Source: Phycisphaerae bacterium
GTDB taxonomy: Bacteria; Planctomycetota; Phycisphaerae; Sedimentisphaerales; Anaerobacaceae
Direction: 5' to 3'
DNA: 64,000 nt
Assembly: GCA_030615025.1 (NCBI GenBank)
Contig: JAUXAB010000013.1
Coordinates: 3,655-67,654, forward strand
Shown here: positions 9,931 to 51,123 of the stretch, piece after piece
Position numbering within the stretch: the first letter of the stretch is position 1
Layout: each line of letters begins with the position of its first letter
The notes under the pieces: generated by a model
What the model was told of the DNA's origin: nothing
What the model saw: only the letters and a program-made list of their open reading frames with translations
Databases searched by the model: none
Made by a program: the position numbers and the translations under genes

Positions 9931-12900
9931 ATGAAAAATAGCCATCTATGTATAACAGCTACCTTAATATTATTATACGCCGCTGCTGTGGCAAATGGAG
10001 ACTGGTATGCTTTACGGTTTGATGGAGTCGATGATTATGTAGACTGCGGGAATAACCCAGTATTCGCTCTCAACGATGCAATTACACTTGTAGCATGGGT
10101 AAAAACAAATGATACCACCAATGGTGAGTTTAATTCCTTTATAACAAAAGGTGACCACGCTTATGGATTGAAGTCCAACACCCGTGACGCCATAGAGTTT
10201 GTTATTTATGATGGAATGTGGGTCACGGCTGAATATTCCGTAAATTCTTCGTTTAACGGCGTATGGCACCATTTAGCTGGGGTCTATGATGGAAGTGAGC
10301 TTAAGTTGTATATTGACGGAGAGCCAGTGGCCACCACAGCTCATACAGGGACTATAGGCAGCACCAGCGACGACGTTTATTTAGGAGGCAATTCCGAGAC
10401 GGCCGGTCATTTCTACGAAGGCCTTATTGACGAAGTTCGTATCTGGAACATAGCAAGAACACAGGAGGAGATTCAAATAAATATGTATGCTCTGTTTGAT
10501 GGTAATGAGCCAAATCTAGTCGGCTATTGGCAGCTCGATGAAGGAACTGGTCAGATTGCTAGCGATTCTTCCGGCAATGGAAATCATGGACAACTTGGTT
10601 CGACTTCTGGTTCGGATAGCGCTGATCCAGCATGGGTGGTCTCTAGCGCATCCTTTGAAACAGGACTATGGATTACCGGTCATGTTCCCAGCGGTATTGT
10701 AATGAATCCTGTCAGCTACATCGACGTGACATTTAGTAAGGATGTCAATGCGGTTACTTTTACTCTTGATGATGTCAACATGGTTGGCCCAAATGGAGCA
10801 ATTGCGGGGAATCCTCCGTTACACCAAGGGGCAAATGTCTGGCGCGTCAGTTTCCCCGAGCACTCCGCTGAGGGATTGTACTATGTTTACATTGGACCGC
10901 ACATTGAGGATTCCAACGGGAATGAAATGGATCAAGATAGAGATGGTATCCCCGGAGAATATCCCGATGATCGTTATGAGGGAACATTTACGATTTCGCG
11001 AAACACAGCGCTGCAATTTGATGGTGTCGATGATTATGTTGATTTGGGAAATGATCTAAGTTTAAGTATCAGCGACCACATAACCATTTCTGCGTGGGTT
11101 AAACATAACAGCGGAACGCCCGGCCAATGGGAAGACATAATCATGAAGGGTAACACAGCATATGGATTTCAACTTTACAATACTAGCGGAGAGTTTACAT
11201 TCCACATACACTCCGGGAGTTGGAAAAACCTTAAGTCTGACGTAGTTCCTGAGGCAGGTTCCTGGTATCACATAGCAGGGACCTATGATGGAAATGTACA
11301 AAAAGTATTCATTAATGGTGTTCTAAACAATACGGACTATTGGAGCGGGACCATAGATGAAAACTCTGATCATTTAACAGTAGGATATAAAGTTGCAGGT
11401 GATAACTCATGGTTTAACGGAGCGATAGACGAAATACGCATCTGGAATATTGCCCGCATACAGGAGCAGATTGCAGCAGGTATGAATCGAGCATTGGTGG
11501 GACAGGAGGCAGGGTTGGTGGGCTACTGGAGATTTGATGAAGGAGCGGGTCAGACTGCCAGTGATTCATCCGGCAACAGAAATGATGGGCAGCTTGGTTC
11601 AACATCTGGTCCAGATGATAATGATCCGGCGTGGGTGGTGTCCGCTGCTCCCGTGAGGAAAGAATTCTGGCTTACAGTTTATACTCCCAGTGGTTTTGTT
11701 ACGAATCCAGTCAGCTACGTTGATGTGACATTTAGTAAAGATGTCAACGGGCCAAGTTTCACTGTTGATGATGTGAACATGATGGGGCCCAGTGGACCAA
11801 TTTCTGTCAATTCTCCGTCATATCAGGGCAGAAACGTCTGGCGGGTTAGTTTCCCTGAGCAGTCTGAGGAAGGAGAGTATCATCTTTACATCGGCCCAGA
11901 CATTGAAGACTCTAATGGGAACAAAATGGACCAAGACGGTGATGGCATTGCTGGAGAAGTTCCTGACGATATATATGATGCCATCTTCACGGTAGTTCAA
12001 GGCATATTGTTTACGAGTGATACATTGATTGATGTTGGGGATGCCAACTATGAAGGAGAGGACATTGTTGTCTCAGGGTGCACATTGACGGTCAATGGCG
12101 AACATGAGTTCAATACTCTACATCTAATTAACAGTGGAGTCGTGACTCATTCGGCGGCCACAGATGGCCAAGCAGATTACAAAGTCTATCTGAACATCGC
12201 AGGAGACGTTACGGTTGCTGCAGGATGCGAGATCTCTGCAGACGCCAAGGGTTATGGGTATGACCGTGGCCCCGGTGCCGGCGGATATATATTTATACGT
12301 TCGGGTTATGTCAAAAGGGTTAGGAGCGGCGGTGGCGGGTACGGTGGTTCTGGGGGAATCGGTGAGTTTTCAAATGTAGTGTATGGTGCCCCCTACGGTT
12401 CAATCACGCAGCCGAATGAACCGGGCAGTGGCGGTGGCCATTGGAATGGAGGAACAGGTGGCGGTGTTGTTCACCTGACTATAGGAGGTGCCTTTTTGCT
12501 AGATGGGCGCATTACAGCCAACGGGACGAACGGAACGTGGTCAAGCTACATGGATTATTCATATTCTGGGGGCGGTGGCTCTGGGGGAAGCATATACATC
12601 GGTGCCGAGACGTTTACCGGGCAAGGCTTGATTGCAGCGAATGGAGGTGCAGGTGCAGGCGGCTCTGGCGGGGGCGCTGGTGGCAGAATCGCTATCCACT
12701 ACAATACAAACACATTCACGGGGACCTCTTCAGCATATGGTGGATCAGGGTATGAGTACGGTGGAGCAGGGACAATCTTCACAAAGTCCCCCACTCAAAT
12801 CTGGGGCGATCTGCTAGTCGACAATGACGACAATCTGGGGGCGACCACCCCCCTCTTGAACAACGATTGGACTTTTGACGCTATGGAGGTTGTTGAGAAG

Positions 12901-15900
12901 GGCAACTTGGAAGTCCCTGCTGATGTGAATCTCACTTTAATTCCTGACGTCCTGACTGTGGACAGCAATGGACAAATGATTGTAAGAGGTCAAGTACTCT
13001 ATGAAGGTGACATCAACGGTAGATTCTCACTGGTTGAACTTACATCAGGGGGGACGCTGGTCCTTGACGACGATGGTCAGATTTCTTGCGGCCACGCAGA
13101 GCTATCAGGAGGCACGCTGATCATAAATGACAGCGGCCGCCTCGACCTACAGCACGTGGAAGTTCTCTCCGGTGGTACATTAATACTGAACACATTGCAG
13201 GCCTTCCCGAGCATGCACATTGGTCCAGGGGGATTGTTGACCCATGCACAAAGCGTGGATGGTTTTGACCTGAGGATCTCCGCCGATCTGACCGTTGATG
13301 CAGGGGGCTCGGTTTCAGTTGACGCGAAGGGCTACGGGGTAGTTAGCGGTCCGGGGGCAGGTGGTTTTGGCAAAGTTGACGCCCTGCTTGCTACGAATCT
13401 ATTTGGTGGTGGAGGTGGGTATGGTGGTACCGGGGGAGATAGTCGTGGAGGTGCCACAGGTGGTTCAGTGTACGGCTCGCTGACTGAGCCGACAGATTGG
13501 GGTAGCGGCGGTGGCTTACAGTGTTGCGGAGGTGTAGGTGGGGGGGCCGTACGTTTAGCAGTAGGTGGAACATTTTTGTTCAATGGCGAGATCACCGCTA
13601 ATGGCACCAACGGCTTCTACAATTACCAACCCGGATCCCATCGATACGGCGGCGGAGGCTCAGGTGGGAGTGTCTTCGTAGCCACGGAGACTTGGGCTGG
13701 CTCGGGTACGATTGTGGCAAACGGCGGCCAAGGAGCAGGTGGTGGAGGGGGCGGTGGCAGAATCGCCATATACTACAATGATGACAGTTTCAGCGGAACA
13801 ATTAGCGCAGCAGGCGGTGCGGGCGGTGGGCCCGGTCAGCCAGGAACGGTCTTTCTTGGACGGGATCTGCCCCCCATGGTTAGCTCGGATATGGCCCCGA
13901 GGGGCCAGGTGCGGACACCGCTGGATCACATAGACTTTGTATTCACACGGCCAATTGATCCCAATACATTCACACTAGAGGATATTCAGCTGTGGGGACC
14001 CGATGGCGAGGTTTTCATAACGAGTATTGCGCTCGTGAATGAATTTGCAGGTCGGCAGACCTACCGCATCAGTTTCCCGATCCTGGTGGCAAACGGGGGA
14101 TACCGGCTATCGATAGGTCCTAACATAACCGATGAAGAAGGTAACCTTCTGGACCAAGACTATGATGGAGTCGGTGGAGAGGCTATCGATGACGTGTACG
14201 AGGTTCGCTGGACACTTGATACCATTGGCCCGCGAATTGCGAACCACTCTCCCGCAGGTGATATTGCCGGAACAGTTGGGTACGTTGATGTTTGGTTCTC
14301 TGAGAACTTAGACACGGCTACCTTTAGCCTGGACGATGTTAACATCGTCGGGCCAGGCGGAAACATAACGCCGACGGATCTGGCCGAAATTGGGAACAGC
14401 GTTTTTCGCATTACCTTCGACGCCCAAACTATGCAGGGACAATATCATGTGCTGATAAGGCCGGACGTCAACGATCTGGCAGGCAACATTATGGACCAGG
14501 ATGACGATGGAACACAAGGGGAACCGAATGATGACACCTACGACGCTTCGTTCTATCTGGCGGATGTGGACCTCACGCTTAGCAATGTGGTCGTTGATCC
14601 TAACGAGCTCTTGGCAGGCGAGGAGGTTACTGTTTCATGGTATGGATCCAACCAGAGCGGCATGCCGCTGCTGGGGGATTGGACAGATGCTGTCTACTTA
14701 TCGGCGGATGATCAGTGGGACATTGAGGATGAATTGTTGGCAACCATCCCGCATAGCAATGGTCTTGCCCAGGACGAGACGTACTCGAGGTCTGTGGACG
14801 TGCTTGTGCCCGGGAGAATTCCAGGTAACTACCACATCATAGTCCGCACCGACCTGTACAACCAGGAGAAGGAGGCCGGCGATGAAGGCAATAACATCGT
14901 AGCCATCGGACCGCTCTCATTAGATGTGCGTGAGCTTTTGGCTGATGCGGTGCCAGTAACCGGCACCCTGACAGATTCGAACTGGCTTGATTACTATGAG
15001 ATTAACACGCAAGATGGGAATAACTTGGCTATTATATTGGATCAGTTGGACCCCAACGCGAGTGTTGATTTCTTCGTGAGCTACGAACGAATTCCAACTG
15101 TATTAGATTATGACTTCCGCTCAAGTGTTAACGTTCAGGGTAACCTGCAGGTAACGATTACTGGGACTTTGGCCGGGGCATATTATGTCCTGGTTGATGG
15201 CGATCAGTTTGTGGGACCAAGCTCTTATGATCTGATGGCTGACACACCTGAGATCGTCGTAACCAGTATCAATCCTGACCATCACGGCGTTGGTTCGGCG
15301 TGCACGATCACAATAGTGGGTGGGGGTTTTGACGACAGTAGTACCGTCGAGTTCATAGGTTCTGACGATAGCATCTGGGCCCCAAGCCAAATTAGAGTCA
15401 TTTCGCCCACGACGATGACAGTCGACCTTGATTTGCCTGCCTGGCCACAAGATGCTTACGACCTGATTGTCGCTAAGCCAGGTGTTGACCCACACGAGGT
15501 TGTAAATGCCTTTGAAGTAACAACGGCAGTTCCAGCGATTTTGGATGCACGTGTTGTTGTTCCCAGCGCACTGGGACGGCACTGGTATGCCACTCTCTGG
15601 ATTGAATATGCCAACACTGGCGAGGCATCGATGCCAGCCCCCTTGTTTAAGCTGCACGGTAGCGATGATGCGATTCTTACTCTCGATTCATCGCTTGCTG
15701 GAAGGGGGCTTTGGACTAACACTTCTCCGGCTGGCACAAGCGATACCGTTCAAGTTATGGCCACCGGCTCCGGTGCTACTCCAGGCATACTGCAGCCTGG
15801 CGACTCTGGCCGCATTCCGGTGTACTACCTTGGCTTAAAGCTGCCTTGGGATTTCTCAGACGGTACGGTCAAGTTCGATCTCGGTGTCCTGACGGCTGAT

Positions 15901-18900
15901 GGCACCGAGCCCATCAACTGGGCTTCGCTCAAAGACGAAGTGCGTCCTAAGTCCATACTCCCCGATGCCTGGGATGCTATCTGGGTAAACTTAACCGAAC
16001 AAATAGGCGACACTTGGGGTGATTATGTTGCCATGCTCGACGAGAATATGAATTATCTGCACACCGTTGGCCAAGATGTGAGCGATGTTAAGTCTTTGCT
16101 GGCTTTTGGAATTCAGCAGGCTCAGGCACTGAGTCCGTTTTCATATCTGGCGGGCGCAGCCGAACTGTACTCCCTCGCACCGGGTATCCCGCTCACGTTT
16201 AGCCGTGTCTATGGGCAATCAATCGATTCACGCTACGAGTTTGGACCGCTGGGCCGAGGCTGGAGACACAATTGGGACATCTATATCGAAGAGTTTCCCG
16301 ACGGCGATGTGATCGTCCGTGGCCCGCTTGGTATAGACCGTTACTTCAACCGCGACAGTGGCGGCTATACCGCTTCGCCAGGAGATTACGGCACGTTAAC
16401 CTTAAGCGACGGTAAGTACAACCTAACCGAGAAGTACGGAGCCGTCTGGCAGTTTCGCTCGGACAACCTTTTGGACTACGTCGAGGACAGAAACGGCAAT
16501 CGCATTACCGCTGGTTATGCCACAGGACAACTCATAAGTATCACGCATTCCAATGGTGACCAGCTTCTGTTTGACTACAACGGCGAAGGTCGTATCTGGC
16601 ACGTTACTGACCCGCGAGGCCCCGGCCCGGAAGATGACTACGTGGTTATATATGAATATGATGTTTCCCGCGAGCACTTAGTCAACGCTAATGAACCCAA
16701 CAATCGCGTCACAAGGTATACCTACAACACAGGAAATGGTTTGCAACGTGAACATGCCCTTCTGTCTGTGGAGTATCCTGATGGCAGAGACGTTCACTTC
16801 TCATACGACGCCAAGGGTCGTCTGGTCGAAACACACCGCGGAGGTGGGGTGGAGTCAGTTACCTACAGTTATGATCCTACTGGGACCGTAACAGTCACGG
16901 ATGCTACCGGGCGGCAGGCCGTTCTTTACTTTGGTTTAGGCGGACAGCTTGCTCAGTTGCGCGATGGGGAAGGCAATGTCATTAGACTTGCCTATGACCG
17001 CAACTACGAACTTACTCAATTGACCGGCGCAAGTGGCCAGCAGTACAACTACTCCTACGACTCACTGGGTAACTTGACCACCATCGAGGACCCCCTTCGG
17101 CGGATCACAGCTCTCACACACAGTTCATCCTTCAATGACTTGACCTTGGTTATTGACGCGCGAAACAATGGTATAGATTATGACTATGATTCCTCGGGCA
17201 ACCTGACGGCGATTACCTACGAAGATGGAACTACCGAATCCTTCACATATGATGCTAGTGGCAACGTTCTGACCTGGACTAACCGCCGAGGCGATACCGT
17301 AACATACAGCTACGACAGCCGAGGTCAGCTAACCAGCAAAGACTACTCCAACACGCCAGAAGCAAACGACTGCACTTATGTTTATGATGACGCCGGTAAT
17401 CTTATCTCAGCCACGGATGCCAGTAGTATGATCGCTATGACGTATGATCCCAGCACAGATTGGCTGACAAGGATTGATTATCCTGGTGGTTATTTTTTTA
17501 CATTCGAGTACGACAATGTGGGGCGACGCACCCAGCGAACCGACCAAAATGACAACGTGGTGAAGTACATCTACGATACTGTTGGCCAGTTGGGCCAAAT
17601 GACCGATGGCAATGATGCACTTATAGTTGATTATGACTATGATGCAGGCGGGCGTTTAAGTCGTAAGACACTGGGTAATGGCGTCTATACTAATTATGAG
17701 TACGATAATGCCGGGCGTCTGACACACCTTATAAATCACGGTTCCGATGCAAGTGTTATCTCCCGATTTGACTACACTTATGATGCCTCTGGAAGGCGAA
17801 CCTCGATAACAACGTTGGACGGCACCTACAGCTATGACTATGACCCGCTTGACCAGCTAACCGACGTGACCTATCCCGATGGGCGTATTGTAGAGTACGT
17901 CTACGACGCCGTGGGCAATCGCATCGCAGTTATCGACGACGCAGTAGCTACTTCCTATACCACCAACAACATAAATCAGTACACTAATGTGGGCGAGATC
18001 ACATATACTTGTGATGCCGATGGTAATCTCCAGGCTAAGACAGAAGGTGGCATAACAACGACATATACTTATGACGTGGAGAATCGTTTGGTCGGTGTGA
18101 GCACTCCGACGGATACCTGGACTTACACCTATGACGTCTTCGGAAACCGCATCTCTTCCAGTCACAACAGCGTAACCACGCAATACGTCGTGGATCCGAT
18201 AGGCTATGGCGATGTGGCGGCTGAGTATGACAATGCCGGGAGTCTCATAGCGACGTATGACCACGGTTTTGGACTATTGAGTCGAACAGATGCTTTGGGG
18301 GCTTCTGCTTACTATACTTTTGACGTTATTGGCTCAACCAGCGAGCTGACTGATGCAAACGGTACCATCCTTAACACCTACGCCTATGACCCATTCGGCA
18401 TCTCGCTCAGCAAATTAGAATCAATACCTAATCCGTTCCAGTACGTCGGTGAGTACGGCGCGATGCACGAAAATCACGGCCTGGAGTTCATGCGAGCGAG
18501 ATTCTATGAAGCAACCACTGGTCGGTTTATTACAGGAGATCCGCTGGGAATAGCAACAGGGGACGTAAATTTTTACAGGTATGTACACAATAATCCACTG
18601 AACTCCATCGACCCAAAGGGGCTGGACCTTTGGGACTTCTATGATGAATATCGGAAGTGGTCGTGGAAACAAACTAAGAAAACGCTGGAAGACATACTCA
18701 AACCGCCTCCAGCCACTCCTCTCTCCGAATATGAAGATTTAGATTATCCTGAGGAGGATGAGGAAGAAGGATGGCGAGATCCGTTAAGACATGCTCTAGA
18801 CGATCTTATCCCTATCCTACCTCCGACAGAACCAATGGTGGGAGACCGTCCCCTCTCCGAACTTGGCAAAACACCCCAGAAAATGCCACCTGAGCTGCCT

Positions 18901-20358
18901 GATCCGTGCACTACTCCGGTCGGCGATGCCGATACTGCTGTGAGTCAACCAGTCGATCCGAGTGACAAGCTCGGGCCTACGGGCTGCGGCGCGGCGAGGT
19001 TCGTCCGAGGGGACGATTTACTTGCGTACAAGATACGATTCGAAAATGAATCCGACGCCACTGCACCAGCCCATATCATTAACGTCACAGATACGCTCGA
19101 CGAAGATCTGGACCTCAGTACATTTGAACTTACAGAGATTTCCTTTGCCAATCACATTATTATTGTGCCCGAGGGCCTGAATCACTACGAGACGACCATG
19201 AATCTCGTTGTTGAGAATGAGTTCGTCAGCGAAACCGAACTTGTTGTTGAAATAGACGTTTTTCTGGACATGGGCTTGCGAGAGCTAACCTTCACCATGA
19301 TCGGAGTCGATCCTAACACGGGTTGGTTGCCCGAAGACATTATGGTAGGGATGCTTTATCCTAACGACGACACAGGACGCGGTGACGGCCACATTAGCTT
19401 CACTGTCAAGCCAATCCCGGGCCTCCCATCAGGAACTGAGATTACCAATAAGGCGACCATCAAGTTCGACTGGGAAGACCCACTTTTGACGCCATTAGTA
19501 CTGAACACAATTGATGCTGCCCCCCCAGTCAGTCAGGTCAACGCTCTGCCCCCAGAGGCAAATGACATTTCCATCCTTATCTCATGGGGCGGCCAGGATG
19601 ATGCCAACGGCTCAGGTATCGCCAGTTATGACATCTATGTTTCAGATAACGGAGGTGCATATATTCTTTGGCTGGATGACACAAATGCGATCTCCGCTAC
19701 CTTTGTTGGTGAGCATGGGCATACCTATTCGTTCTACAGCGTGGCCACAGATAATGCGGGCCATGTGGAAGAAGCGCCGACAGTACCGGATGTGATTATA
19801 GCCCTTTACGACCGCACTTCCCCTCGAGTCATAAACGCGATCGTGAATGAAAGTCGGCCCCAACGTTCTACTATCGGAATGCTGGGGATTCAGTTCAGTG
19901 AGCATCTTGAGGTCACCAAAGAAATATTGACGCTATATAACAACACGGATGGCAATTATGTGGACCTATCAGGCTTGACTGAATCAGACTTTGATTATAG
20001 CGAATCAACTTATACAACCATATGGAACGTGTCAGGTCTGATACTCTCGGACGACAATTATACTGCCACTATTTTGGCATCCGCTGTTATTGATACGGGA
20101 GGCAATCAGCTGGATGGAAATGGTGACGGCACCGGCGGAGATGATTATACATTTGATCTCTTCCGCCTATTTGGTGACTTTGACGGCAGTGAGAGTGTTG
20201 ACTTTATTGACTTCTCGGCCTTTGCAGAAAAATGGCGAACTACTGATTGTGTTGAGCCATACTGGTGCGGTGGGGCTGACTGTGAGCCAGATGGGGATGT
20301 AGATTTTCCTGACCTTGCCGCATTTGTTCAGCGCTGGCTTGAAGGCGTAGGGCAGTAA
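9931..20358 (+). CDS. Giant secreted multidomain protein: 2x(LamG + Ig-like), 2x Gly-rich beta-helix-like module, Ig-like/CARDB/PPC/IPT domains, RHS/YD shell, C-terminal beta-sandwich domains and dockerin-like tail
   Basis: Signal-like N-terminus MKNSHLCITATLILLYAAAVANG. LamG_3 domain ends (IDEVRIWNIAR, twice). Internal duplication of about 330 aa. GGGGYGGSGG...RIAIHYN modules, twice. CARDB-like segment DLTLSNVVVDP...GNYHIIVRTD. Many YDxxGRL repeats. RHS core ending RFYEATTGRFITGDPLGI...YRYVHNNPLNSIDPKGL. Good SD (GAGGGGTG) before the ATG. Confidence 0.9.
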   Translation: MKNSHLCITATLILLYAAAVANGDWYALRFDGVDDYVDCGNNPVFALNDAITLVAWVKTNDTTNGEFNSFITKGDHAYGLKSNTRDAIEFVIYDGMWVTAEYSVNSSFNGVWHHLAGVYDGSELKLYIDGEPVATTAHTGTIGSTSDDVYLGGNSETAGHFYEGLIDEVRIWNIARTQEEIQINMYALFDGNEPNLVGYWQLDEGTGQIASDSSGNGNHGQLGSTSGSDSADPAWVVSSASFETGLWITGHVPSGIVMNPVSYIDVTFSKDVNAVTFTLDDVNMVGPNGAIAGNPPLHQGANVWRVSFPEHSAEGLYYVYIGPHIEDSNGNEMDQDRDGIPGEYPDDRYEGTFTISRNTALQFDGVDDYVDLGNDLSLSISDHITISAWVKHNSGTPGQWEDIIMKGNTAYGFQLYNTSGEFTFHIHSGSWKNLKSDVVPEAGSWYHIAGTYDGNVQKVFINGVLNNTDYWSGTIDENSDHLTVGYKVAGDNSWFNGAIDEIRIWNIARIQEQIAAGMNRALVGQEAGLVGYWRFDEGAGQTASDSSGNRNDGQLGSTSGPDDNDPAWVVSAAPVRKEFWLTVYTPSGFVTNPVSYVDVTFSKDVNGPSFTVDDVNMMGPSGPISVNSPSYQGRNVWRVSFPEQSEEGEYHLYIGPDIEDSNGNKMDQDGDGIAGEVPDDIYDAIFTVVQGILFTSDTLIDVGDANYEGEDIVVSGCTLTVNGEHEFNTLHLINSGVVTHSAATDGQADYKVYLNIAGDVTVAAGCEISADAKGYGYDRGPGAGGYIFIRSGYVKRVRSGGGGYGGSGGIGEFSNVVYGAPYGSITQPNEPGSGGGHWNGGTGGGVVHLTIGGAFLLDGRITANGTNGTWSSYMDYSYSGGGGSGGSIYIGAETFTGQGLIAANGGAGAGGSGGGAGGRIAIHYNTNTFTGTSSAYGGSGYEYGGAGTIFTKSPTQIWGDLLVDNDDNLGATTPLLNNDWTFDAMEVVEKGNLEVPADVNLTLIPDVLTVDSNGQMIVRGQVLYEGDINGRFSLVELTSGGTLVLDDDGQISCGHAELSGGTLIINDSGRLDLQHVEVLSGGTLILNTLQAFPSMHIGPGGLLTHAQSVDGFDLRISADLTVDAGGSVSVDAKGYGVVSGPGAGGFGKVDALLATNLFGGGGGYGGTGGDSRGGATGGSVYGSLTEPTDWGSGGGLQCCGGVGGGAVRLAVGGTFLFNGEITANGTNGFYNYQPGSHRYGGGGSGGSVFVATETWAGSGTIVANGGQGAGGGGGGGRIAIYYNDDSFSGTISAAGGAGGGPGQPGTVFLGRDLPPMVSSDMAPRGQVRTPLDHIDFVFTRPIDPNTFTLEDIQLWGPDGEVFITSIALVNEFAGRQTYRISFPILVANGGYRLSIGPNITDEEGNLLDQDYDGVGGEAIDDVYEVRWTLDTIGPRIANHSPAGDIAGTVGYVDVWFSENLDTATFSLDDVNIVGPGGNITPTDLAEIGNSVFRITFDAQTMQGQYHVLIRPDVNDLAGNIMDQDDDGTQGEPNDDTYDASFYLADVDLTLSNVVVDPNELLAGEEVTVSWYGSNQSGMPLLGDWTDAVYLSADDQWDIEDELLATIPHSNGLAQDETYSRSVDVLVPGRIPGNYHIIVRTDLYNQEKEAGDEGNNIVAIGPLSLDVRELLADAVPVTGTLTDSNWLDYYEINTQDGNNLAIILDQLDPNASVDFFVSYERIPTVLDYDFRSSVNVQGNLQVTITGTLAGAYYVLVDGDQFVGPSSYDLMADTPEIVVTSINPDHHGVGSACTITIVGGGFDDSSTVEFIGSDDSIWAPSQIRVISPTTMTVDLDLPAWPQDAYDLIVAKPGVDPHEVVNAFEVTTAVPAILDARVVVPSALGRHWYATLWIEYANTGEASMPAPLFKLHGSDDAILTLDSSLAGRGLWTNTSPAGTSDTVQVMATGSGATPGILQPGDSGRIPVYYLGLKLPWDFSDGTVKFDLGVLTADGTEPINWASLKDEVRPKSILPDAWDAIWVNLTEQIGDTWGDYVAMLDENMNYLHTVGQDVSDVKSLLAFGIQQAQALSPFSYLAGAAELYSLAPGIPLTFSRVYGQSIDSRYEFGPLGRGWRHNWDIYIEEFPDGDVIVRGPLGIDRYFNRDSGGYTASPGDYGTLTLSDGKYNLTEKYGAVWQFRSDNLLDYVEDRNGNRITAGYATGQLISITHSNGDQLLFDYNGEGRIWHVTDPRGPGPEDDYVVIYEYDVSREHLVNANEPNNRVTRYTYNTGNGLQREHALLSVEYPDGRDVHFSYDAKGRLVETHRGGGVESVTYSYDPTGTVTVTDATGRQAVLYFGLGGQLAQLRDGEGNVIRLAYDRNYELTQLTGASGQQYNYSYDSLGNLTTIEDPLRRITALTHSSSFNDLTLVIDARNNGIDYDYDSSGNLTAITYEDGTTESFTYDASGNVLTWTNRRGDTVTYSYDSRGQLTSKDYSNTPEANDCTYVYDDAGNLISATDASSMIAMTYDPSTDWLTRIDYPGGYFFTFEYDNVGRRTQRTDQNDNVVKYIYDTVGQLGQMTDGNDALIVDYDYDAGGRLSRKTLGNGVYTNYEYDNAGRLTHLINHGSDASVISRFDYTYDASGRRTSITTLDGTYSYDYDPLDQLTDVTYPDGRIVEYVYDAVGNRIAVIDDAVATSYTTNNINQYTNVGEITYTCDADGNLQAKTEGGITTTYTYDVENRLVGVSTPTDTWTYTYDVFGNRISSSHNSVTTQYVVDPIGYGDVAAEYDNAGSLIATYDHGFGLLSRTDALGASAYYTFDVIGSTSELTDANGTILNTYAYDPFGISLSKLESIPNPFQYVGEYGAMHENHGLEFMRARFYEATTGRFITGDPLGIATGDVNFYRYVHNNPLNSIDPKGLDLWDFYDEYRKWSWKQTKKTLEDILKPPPATPLSEYEDLDYPEEDEEEGWRDPLRHALDDLIPILPPTEPMVGDRPLSELGKTPQKMPPELPDPCTTPVGDADTAVSQPVDPSDKLGPTGCGAARFVRGDDLLAYKIRFENESDATAPAHIINVTDTLDEDLDLSTFELTEISFANHIIIVPEGLNHYETTMNLVVENEFVSETELVVEIDVFLDMGLRELTFTMIGVDPNTGWLPEDIMVGMLYPNDDTGRGDGHISFTVKPIPGLPSGTEITNKATIKFDWEDPLLTPLVLNTIDAAPPVSQVNALPPEANDISILISWGGQDDANGSGIASYDIYVSDNGGAYILWLDDTNAISATFVGEHGHTYSFYSVATDNAGHVEEAPTVPDVIIALYDRTSPRVINAIVNESRPQRSTIGMLGIQFSEHLEVTKEILTLYNNTDGNYVDLSGLTESDFDYSESTYTTIWNVSGLILSDDNYTATILASAVIDTGGNQLDGNGDGTGGDDYTFDLFRLFGDFDGSESVDFIDFSAFAEKWRTTDCVEPYWCGGADCEPDGDVDFPDLAAFVQRWLEGVGQ
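16168..18624 (+). other. RHS/YD-repeat shell and RHS-associated core inside the giant CDS
   Basis: YDAKGRLVE, YDSRGQLTS, YDDAGNLIS, YDNVGRRTQ, YDAGGRLSR, YDNAGRLTH, YDASGRRTS and others, ending with the canonical core motif ...NPLNSIDPKGL at 18610-18624. Confidence 0.85.
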
Positions 20359-21186: not shown

Positions 21187-21215
21187 TTGAATTTTATTCG
21201 ATAAGAGTGTATATT
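21187..21215 (+). promoter_or_regulatory. Sigma70-like promoter candidate (TTGAAT-17-TATATT)
   Basis: Hexamers at 21187-21192 and 21210-21215 in an AT-rich stretch about 150 nt upstream of the Hcp-domain gene. Promoter rules for this lineage are uncertain. Confidence 0.3.
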
Positions 21216-21355
21216 TATTATAATAAACTACCAGACTAACAAGAAGTGTTGAGAACTTCGGTTTTGAGTATTCGGGGGATGCCAGCGGTTTTTGTATCCC
21301 CTGGGTTGTTGTATATTCGTAAAGGAATTCGCAGTTAAAGAGGAATTGTGCTTTT

Positions 21356-22054
21356 TTGGAGGACACAAAAGTGGAAACAAAATACATAACAACGAAGGTG
21401 GTAATGGTCTGTCTGGTGTCACTTGTGCTGGTGCTGATATCTTTCAATGCCGGGGTCGGAGGGCTTGAGCCGCCCGGTCCGCCCGGTTCGCCCGAGTCGT
21501 CGATGCCAAGTCTTGGCGAGATCTATGCGGCGGCTTCGGGGACGCCGGGCGATGTTGCGGCTTATGATTGTTTTTTGAAAGTTGATGGGGTTCTGGGCGA
21601 AAGTACGGATGACAAGCATCAGGAGTGGATTGAGCTGCTGTCGTACAGTCACGGCGTTTCGCAGCCGGGCGCAGGGTCGACAAGTGGCGGCGTGAGGCGG
21701 TCCGCGGAGCGTTGTGACCACGCGGACTTTTCGATTGTCAAGACGCTGGACAAAGCAAGCCCAAAGCTGGCCCTATTCTGCTGCAATGGCAGCCACATCG
21801 GCACGGTGGTTGTTGAGCTTTGCAGGGCAACGGGTGACAAGCAGAAGTATATGGAGTACCGTTTGTCTGATGTGATAGTTACCGTGGTCCGGCCTGGTGG
21901 CAGTGCCCAGGGTGGTGAGGCGCTGCCGTTAGAGGAAGTCAGCTTCAACTATGGGAAGATTGAGTGGATATACACGGAGACCGACCATAAAACCGGAGAA
22001 CCCAAGGGGGACGTTATAGCCCATTGGGACTTAGTGGCGAATAAAGGCAGTTAA
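21356..22054 (+). CDS. Hcp-domain (T6SS tube protein family) protein with N-terminal signal/anchor extension
   Basis: Residues from about 77 onward align by eye along the full length of Hcp1: FLKVDGVLGESTDDKHQEWIELLSYSHGVSQPG...DFSIVKTLDKASPKLALFCCNGSHI...YRLSDVIVTVV..GGS..GGE...EEVSFNYGKIEWIY......G...HWDLVANK. The N-terminus carries the hydrophobic helix VVMVCLVSLVLVLISF plus PPGPPGSPES. TTG start at 21356; the in-frame GTG at 21371 lies 7 nt after GGAGGA and is probably the better start. Confidence 0.8.
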   Translation: MEDTKVETKYITTKVVMVCLVSLVLVLISFNAGVGGLEPPGPPGSPESSMPSLGEIYAAASGTPGDVAAYDCFLKVDGVLGESTDDKHQEWIELLSYSHGVSQPGAGSTSGGVRRSAERCDHADFSIVKTLDKASPKLALFCCNGSHIGTVVVELCRATGDKQKYMEYRLSDVIVTVVRPGGSAQGGEALPLEEVSFNYGKIEWIYTETDHKTGEPKGDVIAHWDLVANKGS

Positions 22055-22143
22055 AGAATTAAGCCGAAATGAAATTCGAGCTTTCTGAGAGTTGCCCGGG
22101 TTAATCCCCGGGCAAAATTCGGGCAGTAGGGAGGCAGGTTAAA

Positions 22144-22764
22144 ATGAGGTCAACAAAGTTACTGCTCGTTGTGGTTTTGTTGATGTTGTTGTCGGCCCCG
22201 GTCGGCTTGTGCGAGAATATTGACCCTTATGAAGACGACTCGCAGTACGCCTACGGTGCGAACGTCGGCTGGCTGAACTTTGAGCCGAACGAAGGGCCCG
22301 GCGTCACGGTCACCGAGACGGAGCTTAGCGGCTATGTCTGGGGGGCACAAATCGGCTGGATAAACCTCGACCCGAATTTCGGCGGGGTTGTAAACGACGG
22401 GACCGGCCGTTTGTCCGGTCACGCCTGGGGCGAAAATGTCGGCTGGATAAACTTTGACCCAAATGTTCCCGACGACCCCAATCGTTATGGTGTTACCGTC
22501 GATGAGCTTGGCAAGTTCGCCGGGTGGGCCTGGGGGCAAAATATCGGCTGGATAAACTTCAACTCGGCTGAGCTTTTTGACCAGGGTGTTCGGGCATGCA
22601 AGGTGGCTTTTGACGACCTTGCGAATTTTACCGACCACTGGCTCTCAATAGACCCCACTTCGCCCGGCAATCTAATCGCACCTACAGGTGTCGATGAACA
22701 TGACTACGCGGTCTTTGCCTGGTACTGGCGCTGTTTCTGCCCCGACGGCTGGCAACTTAAGTAG
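22144..22764 (+). CDS. Secreted protein with four G-x-N-[IV]-G-W-[IL]-N-[FL] repeats and dockerin-like CPxGW tail
   Basis: Signal peptide MRSTKLLLVVVLLMLLSAPVGLC. Repeats GANVGWLNFEPN, GAQIGWINLDPN, GENVGWINFDPN and GQNIGWINFNS. C-terminus ...FAWYWRCFCPDGWQLK. SD GGAGG before the ATG. Confidence 0.7.
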   Translation: MRSTKLLLVVVLLMLLSAPVGLCENIDPYEDDSQYAYGANVGWLNFEPNEGPGVTVTETELSGYVWGAQIGWINLDPNFGGVVNDGTGRLSGHAWGENVGWINFDPNVPDDPNRYGVTVDELGKFAGWAWGQNIGWINFNSAELFDQGVRACKVAFDDLANFTDHWLSIDPTSPGNLIAPTGVDEHDYAVFAWYWRCFCPDGWQLK

Positions 22765-22815: not shown

Positions 22816-25107
22816 TCACTGCTTTTGTTCCTGGCTGCGTTTCCACTTCTTGAACTCCAAGACTTCGAGGTATATGCGTAACTGAGCGACATCGTCGCTG
22901 CGTCCGTTGCGCTGCATGTAATCAATTGCCTTTTGCAGTAGAGAGATTCCCTCATCGTAGCGTTCCTGGAATTCAAGGACCTTTGCAAGATTGACATAAT
23001 TGGCCAAATCATCGGGGTTTAGGTCGACAGCCCGTTTGAAAGCTTGGGCGGCGGCACTGAAATCGGCGATTTTGACGAGGGCGCTGCCCAGTCTGGAGTA
23101 GAGTTCAGGTGAGTCGGGGTGTTTTTGCGTATCCGTGCGGAAGCCCTGCACCGCCTTGAGTAAATGGTCTGTTGCCTCTTTTTCGTGTCCGGAGTTTTGC
23201 AGGGCGATGCCCAAATTGAAATGAACGTTTGGGATGTTGCGTTCTGCTTTGGTCTGTTCGTTGTATTCAACAGCTTTTTTGAAGGCCTCAACGGCTTTGG
23301 TGTAATCTCCCTGTTGAGCGCAAAGAAGGCCTATTTCCCTATACGCTTCTATTGCCAGTTGCGGTTTAGCGTGGGCAGCTTTTTTGTAACAGGCGATACT
23401 TTTTTGGAGCCTGCCCTGTTTGGCAAGCTTTTGCGCCTCTTTGAAATATTTGTGTGCCAGGAATCCTTTAGCACTTTTGCGAACCACCGGAGCAAGTAGA
23501 TTTTCAGCAGGGACATAGTCATCGGTCAAAACTATACCGTGGGATTTTTCTTTGAGGTAATCCATACCGGAGCTGCTTAAGCACCACAGTTGGATATCTT
23601 CCTTGTATCCTGAGATAATATCCTCGAAGTCGAGCTGTCGTTTAGCGGCAACAACGACAAAGGTATTGCGAGCCCACATGGGCATACGGGCCTCTGTTAT
23701 AACATAAACTTCAGCAAAGGTTTGCTGCAGGGTATTCACAACAGCACCGAGAAACTTTGCGCAGTCGTAGATGTCTATAAGGGTTACCATATAGACGCCG
23801 TCGTCGGTAAGGATATCTGAGATTTTATCATTGAATTCTTTTGTTACGAGCTGGTAAGGTACGGAATAATCATTAATGGCATCTTCGTAGATGAAGTCAT
23901 AAAGTTTTTTCTTACCGGTCTGACGCTGCTGTTGTAGAAGCTGATGGAGATAATTTCGTGCATCCATCGTGAGGGTTTTAATGGTGGTATCGCGTTTTAG
24001 GCCGAAGGCCTGCATAGCCGCCTCTGTGACGCCGGGGTCTATTTCCACCACCTCTATTAAGCTGCCGGGCCACATTTTTTCGACATATCTGGGATATACG
24101 TAGCCGCCCCCTCCGATTACCATCACGGAGAGTTTTTCTTTGCCGGCACTGAGACCATGCGTTATGGCGGCGTAAATTTTCGTATAGAAATATTGCAGGT
24201 CGGTTATATCACCCATTACTATTTTGCTGTGTGTCAGCTTGTCCTGGACGAACTCGCGTTTGTCGGGGTCTTGGGAGAGGCGTTTGACGGAGACATAGCA
24301 GTATGGCGTTTCGTCCTGATATATTACCTGAGGGTCGGGTTGCTCGCGAAGAGACAGGGCTGCAGCGGCAGCTTGACACCAATCCATCGGTGCCATTGCT
24401 ATTGCCATCGCGGACAGGAATACTACGGCCCAGATGCAGAATGGCCAAAGACGTATAGAGTAAAGAATGGCCATAAGCAAAAGTACCCCGCCGACGACCC
24501 AGACAATCTCTACGGTTCCCATCGCACCGATGAGCCAATATCCTGCAGCGAATGTACCCGCGATACTTCCGATGGCTCCCCAGGCATAGATAGTGCCGAC
24601 GGTTCTTCCAGTGGGCAGGTCCCTGTCGAGCGCCATTTTGGCCACTACGGGACTTATTGTTCCCAATAGCGTTGACGGCAGCATAAAAACAAGGAAAACG
24701 TGCGTGAATACTCGCGTCGGCCAACTAAGCTGCCATAACCAGATCCATTCGCCCACAAGGTTGTTGAGAATGACAATAGCTACACACGTACCCGATGAAG
24801 CCACAAAAAGCGCTGCCAAGACTTTTCGGGCTTGGAAGCGATCTGCGACTCGGCCCCCAAGGTAGTTACCCAAAGAAATCCCTGCGAGGACCACGCCAAT
24901 GACCGCCGTCCAGGTGTATAGAGACGATCCGAGGTGCCTGGCGATGAGCCGAGCCGCAACCAGCTCGAGGACCATGATACAAAAACTTGAAATAAAGACT
25001 GTCGCACTGGGGATTAACAAGGAAGTCGCCGGAGGAGTTTTGGGATTGTTTTGGGCATTTTCCATAATTATAGAGTTTAAGAACCTTATCGTTGTTAATG
25101 CAAGCAA
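22816..25107 (-). CDS. Fused polytopic membrane / spermidine-synthase-like / TPR protein
   Basis: About 230 aa of TM helices. Spermidine-synthase-type Rossmann motif (LSVMVIGGGGYVYPRY...VVEIDPGV...DAINDYSVPYQLVTKEF). C-terminal TPR repeats. The ATG at 25065 (MENAQNN) is an alternative start. Confidence 0.75.
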   Translation of the reverse strand: MLALTTIRFLNSIIMENAQNNPKTPPATSLLIPSATVFISSFCIMVLELVAARLIARHLGSSLYTWTAVIGVVLAGISLGNYLGGRVADRFQARKVLAALFVASSGTCVAIVILNNLVGEWIWLWQLSWPTRVFTHVFLVFMLPSTLLGTISPVVAKMALDRDLPTGRTVGTIYAWGAIGSIAGTFAAGYWLIGAMGTVEIVWVVGGVLLLMAILYSIRLWPFCIWAVVFLSAMAIAMAPMDWCQAAAAALSLREQPDPQVIYQDETPYCYVSVKRLSQDPDKREFVQDKLTHSKIVMGDITDLQYFYTKIYAAITHGLSAGKEKLSVMVIGGGGYVYPRYVEKMWPGSLIEVVEIDPGVTEAAMQAFGLKRDTTIKTLTMDARNYLHQLLQQQRQTGKKKLYDFIYEDAINDYSVPYQLVTKEFNDKISDILTDDGVYMVTLIDIYDCAKFLGAVVNTLQQTFAEVYVITEARMPMWARNTFVVVAAKRQLDFEDIISGYKEDIQLWCLSSSGMDYLKEKSHGIVLTDDYVPAENLLAPVVRKSAKGFLAHKYFKEAQKLAKQGRLQKSIACYKKAAHAKPQLAIEAYREIGLLCAQQGDYTKAVEAFKKAVEYNEQTKAERNIPNVHFNLGIALQNSGHEKEATDHLLKAVQGFRTDTQKHPDSPELYSRLGSALVKIADFSAAAQAFKRAVDLNPDDLANYVNLAKVLEFQERYDEGISLLQKAIDYMQRNGRSDDVAQLRIYLEVLEFKKWKRSQEQKQ

Positions 25108-27720: not shown

Positions 27721-29634
27721 ATGGACATGAGATTTACTAAACTGACCGCACTTGTACCTGCGGTTACGCAAGTGCAGGCAAGAATCTTTTGTCCGTTGCT
27801 GATATTATTATTAATGATGCCTGGCTGCCGCCGTGCAAAGGACGCCACCGACGTGCCACAGGTTGTAAAGACAAAGACCGGTATAGAAATGGTTGTACTT
27901 CCTGGAGGCTTCTTTGAGATGGGAAGCAAAAAAGGACCGCCTGACGAGTCACCCGTACACAGGGTATGGCTCAGCCCTTTTTGGATGGACAGATTCGAAG
28001 TAGTTCAGGAACAATTCAAAAAGTATCAAATCTCTGACCCCTCTCATTTCAAGAATCCAAAGCATCCCTTAGAACAGATAAACTGGACTGATGCAGCCCG
28101 ATATTGCAATGAGCGTTCACTCGCAGAGGGCCTTGAGCCTTGCTACGATGAAGAAACTTGGAAATGCAACTTTCAGGCAAACGGATACAGGCTGCCGACA
28201 GAAGCAGAATGGGAGTATGCCTGTCGGGCAGGCACGAGCGCGAAGTACAGCTTTGGTAATGATGTACGCAAACTCAAAGCATATGCCTGGTTCGCCGCTA
28301 ACTCATCCGGAAAGACACATCCTGTCGGGACAAAGAGGCCAAATCCATGGGGGCTTTATGATATGTATGGGAATGTGGCAGAGTGGTGCAGCGATTTTTA
28401 TTCCGAGAATTATTACAAGCAAAGCCCCCGGAAAAACCCAAAAGGGCTGGCGAAAGGCCAGGAAAGGGTCCTGAGAGGTGGCGCATGGAACTGGAGCGCC
28501 GATAGCCTCCGGTCATCTTATCGTGCGAGCGACCCTTCTATTGATGATACCTGTCTTGCCAGCGATGCTATAGGCTTTCGCTGCGTAAGAAATGCCCCTG
28601 ATAACATATCTGCCGAACAGGATACGATAAAAGGAAATCAGCCTCAAAGAACGGCAAAAACAGGATTTGTTTACGATGATATTTACCTCGAGCACAAAAC
28701 GACCGCAGGCCATCCCGAGGCGCCGCAAAGATTGGTCGCAATAGTCGAGAGGTTAAAAGCGAAGGCCTTGTACTCTCAATTATTCATGCTCACGCCGTCG
28801 CCGTCCGCGGTGGAATGGCTTACAATGGTTCACAGCCCTGAGTATATACAGCGGGCCGGAGACAGTTGCGAAGACGGCACAAGATATTTGGATTCCATGG
28901 ACACTCCAATATCGCCGAAATCCTATGATGTGGCGTTAATGGCCGTAGGGGGAGTATTTTCCGCCATTGATGCGGTTATGCAGAAGAAGGTCACGAATGC
29001 CTTTTGCGCTGTCCGTCCCCCGGGTCACCACGCAGTACGGGACGGGGCAATGGGGTTCTGCATCTTCAATAATATTGCCATTGGCGCCCGCTATATTCAA
29101 AAAAAATACAACCTGTCAAAGATACTCATTGTGGATTGGGACGTGCACCATGGCAACGGTACTCAAGCAGCGTTTTATGATGACCCTAACGTCTTATACT
29201 TTAGCGTGCACCAGTATCCCTTCTATCCGGGCACCGGAAGTGAAGCAGAAAGGGGAAGTGGAAAAGGTCTGAATTACAATATTAACGTGCCCTTGCCGGC
29301 CGGTTCCACAGACGCCGATTACCTGCGGGTCTTTGAAGAGAAACTTGAGCCCGCAGCCCTTGCCTTCTCTCCGGACTTTGTGCTTATCTCTGCGGGATTC
29401 GATGCCCACAAAGATGACTTGCTCGGCGGTATGAAGGTCACTGCCCAAGGATTTGCGGAACTGACGCAAATCGTCAAGCAGATAGCGGAGAAGTGCTGCG
29501 AAGGTCGCCTCGTTTCTGTTCTTGAAGGAGGGTATGATTTGGAAGCACTGGCTGACTCGGTAGAAGCACACATTCGTGTTTTGATGAGAGGGACCCCATT
29601 TTGCAAAAAGATCGCAAAATGGGAGCCCAGATAG
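27721..29634 (+). CDS. Fusion protein: FGE-sulfatase (SUMF1-like) domain + class II HDAC/acetylpolyamine-amidohydrolase-like deacetylase domain, with N-terminal signal-like segment
   Basis: FGE motifs GYRLPTEAEWEYACRAGT, NPWGLYDMYGNVAEWCSDFY and RVLRGGAW. HDAC motifs VRPPGHHA, DWDVHHGNGTQ, SAGFDAHKDD and EGGY. N-terminus ...IFCPLLILLLMMPGCRR, a possible lipobox. Confidence 0.85.
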   Translation: MDMRFTKLTALVPAVTQVQARIFCPLLILLLMMPGCRRAKDATDVPQVVKTKTGIEMVVLPGGFFEMGSKKGPPDESPVHRVWLSPFWMDRFEVVQEQFKKYQISDPSHFKNPKHPLEQINWTDAARYCNERSLAEGLEPCYDEETWKCNFQANGYRLPTEAEWEYACRAGTSAKYSFGNDVRKLKAYAWFAANSSGKTHPVGTKRPNPWGLYDMYGNVAEWCSDFYSENYYKQSPRKNPKGLAKGQERVLRGGAWNWSADSLRSSYRASDPSIDDTCLASDAIGFRCVRNAPDNISAEQDTIKGNQPQRTAKTGFVYDDIYLEHKTTAGHPEAPQRLVAIVERLKAKALYSQLFMLTPSPSAVEWLTMVHSPEYIQRAGDSCEDGTRYLDSMDTPISPKSYDVALMAVGGVFSAIDAVMQKKVTNAFCAVRPPGHHAVRDGAMGFCIFNNIAIGARYIQKKYNLSKILIVDWDVHHGNGTQAAFYDDPNVLYFSVHQYPFYPGTGSEAERGSGKGLNYNINVPLPAGSTDADYLRVFEEKLEPAALAFSPDFVLISAGFDAHKDDLLGGMKVTAQGFAELTQIVKQIAEKCCEGRLVSVLEGGYDLEALADSVEAHIRVLMRGTPFCKKIAKWEPR

Positions 29635-51066: not shown

Positions 51067-51123
51067 AGACAATGATGACCAATTCTTTTAAGATGTGATG
51101 TGCAAAAAATCAGGAGTTTCACA

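Follow-up and report, generated by a model that had tools for sequence, protein, structure and literature searches.

Hcp, the tube protein of type VI secretion systems (T6SSs), is the textbook example of a protein without a signal peptide, whose only way out of the cell is the T6SS. Canonical Hcp is a single domain of ~160–170 residues that starts at the first β-strand and has no Sec signal. In the Hcp-ET, or "evolved", Hcps, a C-terminal extension is a toxin that is exported through the T6SS, and in several artificial, cytoplasmic scaffolds another polypeptide was placed N-terminal to Pseudomonas aeruginosa Hcp1 (GspE-Hcp1 in 4KSS/4KSR, Vps4-Hcp1 in 6AP1, TrwK-Hcp1 in 7O42). Here, we analyze a 64,000-nucleotide stretch from a Phycisphaerae bacterium (GenBank assembly GCA_030615025.1, contig JAUXAB010000013.1; hereafter the window, to which all coordinates without a locus name refer). 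It contains a gene for an Hcp domain behind a 63-residue Sec-type leader (leader-Hcp) and, 89 nt downstream of its stop codon on the same strand, a gene for a small protein with GWINF-type repeats. We suggest, with a probability of roughly 0.6, that leader-Hcp is a Sec-exported, T6SS-independent Hcp-fold protein that works together with its GWINF partner.

Leader-Hcp shares with the T6SS tube protein (Hcp/TssD) a full-length Hcp domain that is ~80% identical over 163 residues to Hcps of T6SS clusters and that retains all invariant core residues. It differs from the canonical protein in that the leader replaces Met1, that the gene lies outside a T6SS cluster and is paired with a gene for a GWINF protein, and that its rate of nonsynonymous substitution is higher. 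As in Hcp-ET, the Hcp domain is fused to an extra module; however, in leader-Hcp this module is N-terminal, consists of a signal peptide and a short motif, and contains no toxin domain in Pfam or NCBIfam, while the chain ends 21 residues past the Pfam Hcp match (residue 206 of 227+5) with no added C-terminal domain. The engineered Hcp1 scaffolds have a polypeptide in the same N-terminal position, and 4KSS, 6AP1 and 7O42 are among the PDB matches of the Hcp domain in the window. In contrast to these scaffolds, the fusion in leader-Hcp is natural and carries an export signal.

The arrangement also recalls, by analogy only, cohesin-dockerin display and the N-terminal adaptors of phage tail fibers and spikes, in that interchangeable cargos carry one short terminal module. 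The genes for the cargos of the leader (β-helix, Hcp, DUF1566 and small domains) lie together with one for a small repeat protein with a dockerin-like tail. Neither the leader nor the GWINF protein has detectable homology to cohesins, dockerins (E=0.79–0.91) or phage adaptors, and any binding between them is putative.

The Hcp gene and its Sec-type leader

The gene and its parts are as follows.

21371–22054, plus strand: leader-Hcp gene, 227 residues from GTG 21371, stop codon at 22052–22054
21358–21362, plus strand: Shine-Dalgarno sequence GGAGG, 8 nt before GTG 21371 (read from the sequence; alignment A6)
21371–21463, plus strand: Sec-type signal peptide or signal anchor, residues 1–31, METKYITTK followed by VVMVCLVSLVLVLISF and NAGVGG (n-h-c architecture)
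21464–21526, plus strand: conserved motif of the predicted mature N terminus, LEPPGPPGSPESSMPSLGEIY, residues 32–52 (regular expression over all loci, hidden Markov model [HMM], profile search)
21560–22051, plus strand: complete Hcp domain, residues 64–227 (PF05638, E=9.7e-41)

The open reading frame (ORF) that contains leader-Hcp, 21356–22054 on the plus strand, opens with TTG 21356. Of the two candidate starts in the initial annotation, 21356 is the less likely and GTG 21371 the more likely one, because a Shine-Dalgarno sequence sits 8 nt upstream of the latter and because homologs open with M/V-KTKYIT at the equivalent codon. The Shine-Dalgarno sequence is kept in all six sequences of alignment A6 except for its third base, which is G in the related loci L003 and L006 (GGGGG).

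The initial annotation had aligned the C-terminal ~155 residues by eye with the whole length of Hcp, and profile searches agree. The ORF matches Pfam T6SS_HCP (PF05638) over residues 73–206 and profile positions 1–129 of 129 with 139.5 bits (cutoff 23.5), so that a nonsignificant Hcp score, which would have spoken against the assignment, can be set aside. It also matches NCBIfam TIGR03344 (TssD) with E=1.4e-24 and 86.9 bits (cutoff 58.9). In a PDB profile search, the Hcp domain is closest to 7FCF (2e-49), followed by Hcp1-type structures (~1e-25). The relatives found among 5.8 billion proteins fall into two groups, i.e., 165-residue Hcps that are 75–84% identical to the C-terminal 70% of the query, and fifteen proteins of 211–227 residues that span the entire query. 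In an alignment with 15 homologs, the extension stands exactly where the canonical Met1 was (...PLPL-AFDMFLKID versus M-AFDCFLKID). At the canonical start position the window reads GAT GTT GCG GCT TAT, i.e., there is no ATG, GTG or TTG. The hydrophobic helix VVMVCLVSLVLVLISF and the linker LEPPGPPGSPES described initially are both present in the ORF.

In the leader, K4 and K9 precede VVMVCLVSLVLVLISF, and NAGVGG precedes the sequence LEP, which is the layout of a Sec (type I) signal peptide. In general, the leader has a signal peptide of ~31 residues that ends in [AG]G[SND] and is followed by LEPxxPPGxxMx[ST]Lx[ED][IV]Y. Among 72 N-terminal leaders, the median length before LEP is 31 residues (range, 22–42), the net charge is +1 to +6 in 68 (mostly +2 to +4), the uncharged run before LEP has a median length of 21 residues, and the c-region ends in AGS, GGN, GGS, AGN or AGD. 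An AlphaFold2 monomer model, used for secondary structure only, predicts a helix at residues 3–28 and a short helix at residues 48–55. Two other readings of this region were rejected. A type IV pilin-like signal would have a Gly before the hydrophobic stretch and a Glu at +5, both of which are missing, and PPGPPG has just two G-x-y triplets, too few for a collagen-like triple helix.

The N-terminal extension is translated and under purifying selection. By the Nei-Gojobori method, applied to codon alignments of the window with the syntenic loci, the ratio of nonsynonymous to synonymous substitution rates (Ka/Ks) across codons 2–64 is 0.03–0.30 in five pairs among the window, L001, L003 and L011, and thus the extension is coding and constrained. 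The nearly identical pair of the window and L002 (six substitutions) gives 0.37. For the signal-peptide codons alone, Ka/Ks is 0.00–0.24, and 0.74 in the window-L002 pair (three substitutions). With the extension conserved and under selection, and with no canonical start codon, the option that translation begins downstream of the hydrophobic segment is excluded.

Leader-bearing genes and their GWINF-repeat partners

Rather than being restricted to Hcp, the extension is a modular leader common to several types of cargo. When 1.84 billion representative proteins were searched exhaustively with HMMER for the leader profile, 107 proteins scored E≤1e-3, of which 25 match T6SS_HCP, 25 Lcl_C (DUF1566), 6 Beta_helix and 2 NosD in Pfam, with most others unmatched. 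The leader-Hcp family alone comprises at least 25 clusters at 50% identity. The DUF1566 proteins belong to the family of the Legionella collagen-like adhesin Lcl and have a cargo fold unlike Hcp, yet they carry the same motif after the signal peptide and sometimes repeat it. Their hydrophobic core is short (12–16 residues), as is typical of cleaved signal peptides, and their internal copies of the motif lie away from any membrane segment. From this internal recurrence we conclude that the motif is part of the mature protein and does not serve for targeting alone. Two other searches yielded little: a word-indexed profile search with the leader found one 64-residue fragment, and a scan of GTDB with leader peptide patterns, which were too specific, found a single species representative. 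The leader and the small leader cargos have no match in Pfam, NCBIfam or PHROG.

Upstream of GWINF homologs, genes with different bodies share an N terminus of M-E/K-T-K-x-K, a hydrophobic stretch and GG[SN]-LEP-x-APPGPTM-x-TLDE[VI]. Among them are genes for right-handed β-helix proteins (L094 4692–5954; L095 3943–5091 and 5132–5974; L092 4833–5960). For the sequence at 4833–5960 on the plus strand in L091/L092, the public gene call is a 344-residue ORF on the minus strand; the real gene is apparently the leader-β-helix gene on the plus strand. Two different Hcp subfamilies are fused to the same leader. The second one (L092 4090–4752 and L094 3681–4343) is closest to P. aeruginosa Hcp3 (3HE1, 1.9e-34) and Vibrio cholerae Hcp, whereas the window type is closest to 7FCF/Hcp1.

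A further Hcp domain with an apparent Sec signal is encoded at L089 2203–2955 (CAYXTB010000009.1, AT-rich, labelled Woesearchaeota). Here, a signal peptide and a coiled coil of ~70 residues precede the Hcp domain; this extension is unrelated to the leader, and the upstream neighbor encodes a secreted protein that ends in a coiled coil. The apparently independent origin of this protein suggests that Sec-exported Hcp domains arose more than once.

The partner gene in the window has the following parts.

22144–22764, plus strand: gene for the GWINF-repeat protein, 206 residues (ORF list; family search; alignment A4)
22130–22134, plus strand: Shine-Dalgarno sequence GGAGG, 9 nt before ATG 22144 (read from the sequence)
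22144–22212, plus strand: signal peptide, residues 1–23, with predicted cleavage just before ENIDP (alignment A4)
22255–22560, plus strand: four GW β-hairpin repeats with cores at 22255–22281, 22342–22368, 22429–22455 and 22534–22560
22597–22761, plus strand: C-terminal module with Cys152, two helices, Cys199 and the end CPDGWQLK (alignment A4)

We define the module as a cargo with a signal peptide and the motif LEPxxPPGxxMx[ST]Lx[ED][IV]Y, together with an adjacent same-strand gene whose product has four or more GW hairpin repeats and CPxGWxLK at its C terminus. The two genes in the window fit this definition (leader HMM, 4e-13; GWINF HMM, 9e-104). Pairing was counted by local HMM searches for the leader, Hcp and GWINF in all ORFs of 79 loci from GTDB species representatives, and the only distinction made among adjacent leader genes was Hcp or length class. 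Of 80 GWINF genes, 74 are immediate same-strand neighbors of a leader-bearing gene, which is upstream in 64 cases and downstream in 17 at a median distance of 29 nt. Of the six exceptions, two lie at contig edges. The chain of adjacent genes includes leader-Hcp in 21 of the 74 paired cases, and three quarters of the GWINF genes accompany non-Hcp cargos. The co-occurrence of anchored Hcp genes with GWINF genes in relatives, proposed at the outset, is thus one part of a general association. The gene order of the window recurs in L001–L008 and L011, and both leader-Hcp and leader-β-helix genes lie upstream of GWINF genes in L091–L095. All-versus-all clustering of the ORFs in the 79 GWINF loci revealed no third conserved component such as a peptidase, transporter or sortase and, besides the pair, yielded antisense shadows and scattered housekeeping genes. 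From the pairing in 74 of 80 cases and the lack of a third component, we conclude that the window pair exemplifies a general module of two genes. At L228 2–1224, the leader-Hcp gene that precedes a GWINF gene is itself split into three overlapping ORFs, through either pseudogene formation or an assembly error.

The initial description of the downstream gene as encoding a signal-peptide protein with four repeats holds, while the proposed dockerin-like tail has weak support. The repeats in the window are GANVGWLNF, GAQIGWINL, GENVGWINF and GQNIGWINF; the G and W of each repeat are invariant in alignment A4, and some members of the family have five repeats. ENIDP is invariant in the same alignment except for E24, which is kept in at least 90% of sequences. 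In the C-terminal module, two invariant cysteines bracket one EF-hand/dockerin-like loop before the family end CPxGWxLK; the dockerin/EF-hand-like tail is present in most members and degenerate in the window copy. A PDB profile search with the family alignment returned type I dockerin chains at E=0.79–0.91 and nothing significant, Pfam gave no match at E≤1, and there is one EF-hand-like loop instead of the two calcium-binding repeats of a type I dockerin. The AlphaFold2 model predicts a helix at residues 2–21, a pair of strands at each repeat and two C-terminal helices. A lipoprotein signal was considered and rejected, as the Cys at −1 occurs in the window copy only, the family has A, G or S at this position, and there is no lipobox.

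The family search with the GWINF protein gave 1695 matches, the best 120 of which are 46–98% identical, and relatives are present in at least 569 stretches of GTDB species genomes. All 79 loci kept are from metagenome-assembled genomes (MAGs) labelled Planctomycetota, mostly Sedimentisphaerales, Anaerohalosphaeraceae, other Phycisphaerae or "uncultured Pirellulales". Searches of Pfam and NCBIfam gave no match to the family, and PHROG gave no meaningful one. Neither the GWINF protein nor the leader has relatives among viral contigs, and a prophage origin is therefore rejected.

Proposed export route and the place of type VI secretion

The Hcp domain in the window derives, in our reading, from a genuine tube protein of Sedimentisphaerales, because its closest 165-residue relatives are in T6SS clusters. 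These closest leaderless Hcps (~80% identity) sit inside complete clusters, with TssA, TssB, TssC, Hcp, ImpE, TssE, TssF, TssG, TssK, TssL and TssM in L009 and VipB twice, TssE, TssF, TssG, Hcp, FHA, PAAR and VgrG in L010, and one cluster of 165-residue Hcps is named from Sedimentisphaerales. The surroundings of leader-Hcp are different. The initial annotation had seen no T6SS core gene (TssA-M, VgrG, PAAR, ClpV) in the 64-kb window, and this is borne out by Pfam scans, which detected no T6SS family in the window ORFs of ≥150 residues (excluding mere overlaps of better-supported genes) or in ORF 44857–45276. The syntenic loci of leader-Hcp also lack T6SS core genes. CAYGZM01, the single GTDB species in which a close leader-Hcp was detected, has no second canonical Hcp among the 80 listed Hcp loci and is not among the best 80 of 450 TssC relatives, which include many Sedimentisphaerales TssCs at 85–87% identity. 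More generally, 19 of 20 assemblies with a leader-Hcp/GWINF pair are absent from the best 80 of 450 TssC relatives and from the 80 listed Hcp loci; the one present is JAFGTU01. The Hcp domain of leader-Hcp has a Ka/Ks of 0.29–0.59 at Ks<0.4 compared to a median of 0.09 in canonical Hcps (0.08–0.19 at low Ks) in a small sample, and one leader-Hcp subgroup has a shortened long loop. The faster evolution and the shortened loop fit a release from tube and sheath constraints. As a separate observation, 165-residue Hcps that are ~75–80% identical occur in MAGs labelled Planctomycetota, Desulfomonilia, Nitrospirae, Kiritimatiellae, Deltaproteobacteria and others (L012–L090), which suggests that either this Hcp is unusually conserved or its type of T6SS has spread horizontally.

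Export by the Sec pathway or membrane anchoring, as initially proposed from the N terminus, is the natural reading because the same extension is found on β-helix and DUF1566 proteins with an ordinary Sec signal-peptide architecture. Export and cleavage of leader-Hcp, its assembly into a ring and its binding by the GWINF protein are inferred, as parts of the following scenario. The window pair would be a co-transcribed two-gene unit with its own promoter. Leader-Hcp would leave the cytoplasm by the general Sec pathway rather than being fired through a T6SS, and its signal peptide of ~31 residues would probably be cut by signal peptidase I at [AG]G[SND] before LEP, leaving the proline-rich segment and the short helix of the lineage-specific, modular leader (LEPxxPPGxxMx[ST]Lx[ED][IV]Y) on the mature protein. 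Once in the periplasm or at the cell surface, the mature Hcp domain may form its customary hexameric ring. Ring formation would not have to be blocked by an N-terminal addition, because the N-terminal Hcp1 fusions in 4KSS, 6AP1 and 7O42 are, as we take them to be, hexameric assemblies. Six flexible tails would project from one face of the ring; this would be compatible with a ring, while a tail of 32 residues on each subunit should hinder head-to-tail stacking into a tube. The conserved motif in the tail may be the handle by which the GWINF protein binds or positions its cargo, and the dockerin-like tail of the GWINF protein may provide a second attachment point. The initial suggestion that the Hcp ring fold was repurposed outside a T6SS is supported.

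For topology, a serious alternative is an uncleaved signal anchor, in which the hydrophobic segment would remain embedded in the cytoplasmic membrane while the proline-rich linker holds the Hcp ring at the outer face of that membrane. Such an anchor would modify the explanation that we favor and would not oppose it. The uncharged run with its median of 21 residues, the continuous helix that AlphaFold2 predicts at residues 3–28, and signal-peptide codons that are as conserved as the motif (Ka/Ks 0.00–0.24), which is unusual for a disposable signal peptide, would suit an anchor. However, the c-region always ends in small residues before LEP as do signal peptidase I sites, the hydrophobic core of the DUF1566 members has the length typical of cleaved signal peptides, and the motif recurs internally in DUF1566 proteins away from membrane segments. 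We regard an anchor as possible although doubtful, and cleavage as at least as likely from the sequence of the leader. More distant from our proposal is a specialized Hcp that still depends on a T6SS encoded elsewhere, with the extension as an effector or membrane-inserting module and the GWINF protein as its periplasmic immunity protein. Such a role would accord with the identity of ~80% to Hcps of T6SS clusters, with the occurrence of T6SSs in Sedimentisphaerales and of a T6SS cluster alongside the leader-Hcp/GWINF pair in JAFGTU01, with the small secreted protein in the usual position of an immunity gene directly downstream, and with the Rhs protein encoded just upstream in the window. It is nevertheless improbable. 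The same leader is found on β-helix and DUF1566 proteins with ordinary signal peptides, and known extended Hcps carry their toxins C-terminally. Unlike fast-evolving, effector-specific immunity genes, GWINF genes encode proteins that are 50–70% identical across hundreds of genomes, three quarters of them with non-Hcp cargos. Moreover, 19 of the 20 leader-Hcp assemblies have no close TssC among the best 80 of 450, and the Rhs neighbor has its own signal peptide, lacks a PAAR domain and is not syntenic in relatives.

Two further explanations have very little to recommend them. If the gene were an ordinary T6SS tube gene with a miscalled start, the true protein would begin downstream of the hydrophobic segment, for which the complete Hcp domain and an in-frame ATG at 21503 (Met45) could be cited. 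This is most unlikely given the lack of ATG, GTG or TTG at the canonical position, the purifying selection across codons 2–64, and the strong Shine-Dalgarno sequence before 21371 with none before 21503; in addition, Met45 is part of the conserved motif common to non-Hcp proteins, and the 216-residue product of the gene caller also contains the hydrophobic segment. Equally hard to credit is the idea that the gene is functionless today and decaying after the loss of a T6SS. Although the Ka/Ks of the Hcp domain exceeds that of canonical Hcps and the neighborhood has no T6SS genes, many genomes contain intact ORFs, Ka/Ks is still much lower than 1, conservation extends to the leader, the promoter and the partner gene, and the same leader occurs in at least 25 clusters at 50% identity and on two Hcp subfamilies.

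Several points weigh against a Sec-exported, T6SS-independent leader-Hcp acting together with a GWINF partner. Its Hcp domain has kept ~80% identity to true tube proteins, T6SS clusters occur in the order Sedimentisphaerales, and one MAG, JAFGTU01, holds such a cluster together with the pair. The negative results for the T6SS are based on MAGs, exact-peptide seeding and lists of the best 80 relatives, and in the genome of the window itself the search covered its contig only. With 16 residues (~21 uncharged ones when the c-region is counted), the hydrophobic core is long for a signal peptide that is cleaved. The evidence for contact between the GWINF protein and the leader motif is indirect. 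Finally, the confidence of the AlphaFold2 models is low for the leader-Hcp monomer (pLDDT [predicted local distance difference test] 57) and moderate to low for the GWINF protein (pLDDT 67.5), and Foldseek with the latter against the PDB gave no match below E=0.3 and assigned no fold.

On balance, Sec export independent of a T6SS, together with the GWINF partner, remains the explanation that we favor. A broader and more tentative proposal, which we consider possible rather than probable, is that the leader motif and the GWINF protein form an unrecognized two-component system for envelope display or assembly in Sedimentisphaerales and other Phycisphaerae. It could be likened to cohesin-dockerin or to an N-terminal mirror image of PEP-CTERM-type sorting signals. 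In such a system, Hcp would have been captured from the T6SS at least twice, and the Hcp ring or a Sec-dependent Hcp fiber would act outside the cytoplasm, as a structural element or a holder of cargo, in bacteria most of which have no T6SS.

Surroundings of the locus and significance

The remaining features around the pair are listed below.

21187–21215, plus strand: predicted σ70-like promoter, TTGAAT, 17-nt spacer, TATATT (consensus scan)
21275–21301, plus strand: hairpin in the 5' untranslated region (5'UTR), GGGGAT 21275–21280 with ATCCCC 21296–21301 (arms invariant in alignment A6, no covariation)
22092–22115, plus strand: GC-rich intergenic stem-loop, TTGCCCGGG, loop ttaat, CCCGGGCAA (read from the sequence; no T-run)
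22816–25107, minus strand: convergent gene for a membrane protein with spermidine-synthase-like and TPR domains (Pfam)

The promoter block is kept in the syntenic loci L001, L002, L003, L006 and L011 (alignment A6). The 5'UTR of leader-Hcp is ~155 nt and is likewise conserved across the syntenic loci, and L011 has an insertion of ~95 nt within the equivalent of 21187–21370. Rfam gave no match in the window, including the 5'UTR hairpin, and a terminator scan did not call the stem-loop at 22092–22115. The convergent spermidine-synthase-like/TPR neighbor is syntenic in L001, L002 and L003 and is not conserved in the wider set of GWINF loci.

Upstream, 9931–20358 on the plus strand encodes a protein of 3475 residues with a signal peptide, two LamG domains, Big_5, DUF6531 and an Rhs-repeat core. 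It contains the Rhs cleavage-type motif NPLNSIDPKGL, a C-terminal region of ~600 residues (DUF7619) and a dockerin-like tail, and has no PAAR domain. The gene lies 1 kb upstream of leader-Hcp here and not in the syntenic relatives. Two paralogous plus-strand pairs, 42590–44860 with 44857–45276 and 48502–51066 with 51100–51552, each encode a large secreted protein followed by a small protein with a signal peptide. A Peptidase_S74 tail-fiber chaperone domain forms the end of one large protein. The small proteins share GG.YEL.WSTIDGGGG...GTIGQPDA...GGFWPGG and end in CPxGWPL[KR], a C-terminal tail as in the GWINF protein; they have no Pfam, NCBIfam or PHROG match. These pairs may represent a second arrangement of a cargo with a small partner. 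Elsewhere in the window, the stretches 6778–8216 (plus strand) and 8678–9238 (minus strand) hold an AbiEi/AbiEii toxin-antitoxin pair beside a truncated phage-type integrase, and 27721–29634 (plus strand) encodes an FGE-sulfatase/histone-deacetylase fusion, preceded by two PD40 β-propeller paralogs and followed by an MBOAT gene in the same order as in L002.

Neither the family of signal-peptide Hcps, nor the motif LEP...PPGPTM.TL.EIY, nor the GWINF proteins are described in Pfam, NCBIfam, PHROGs or the searchable literature. Leader-Hcp is an Hcp in a new architecture and context, and there is a genuine chance that the leader/GWINF module constitutes a novel type of envelope display system. The leader-Hcp family is found mostly in genomes without a detectable T6SS, and the automatic label "type VI secretion system tube protein" on its genes will falsely imply T6SS capacity in such genomes. 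The two-gene module of a leader cargo and a GWINF protein is widespread and has no Pfam or NCBIfam model; it may explain how β-helix, lectin-like and Hcp proteins are positioned on the envelopes of sediment Planctomycetes. A conserved, diversified Hcp family with a Sec leader would demonstrate a second existence of the Hcp ring, independent of the T6SS and outside the cytoplasm.

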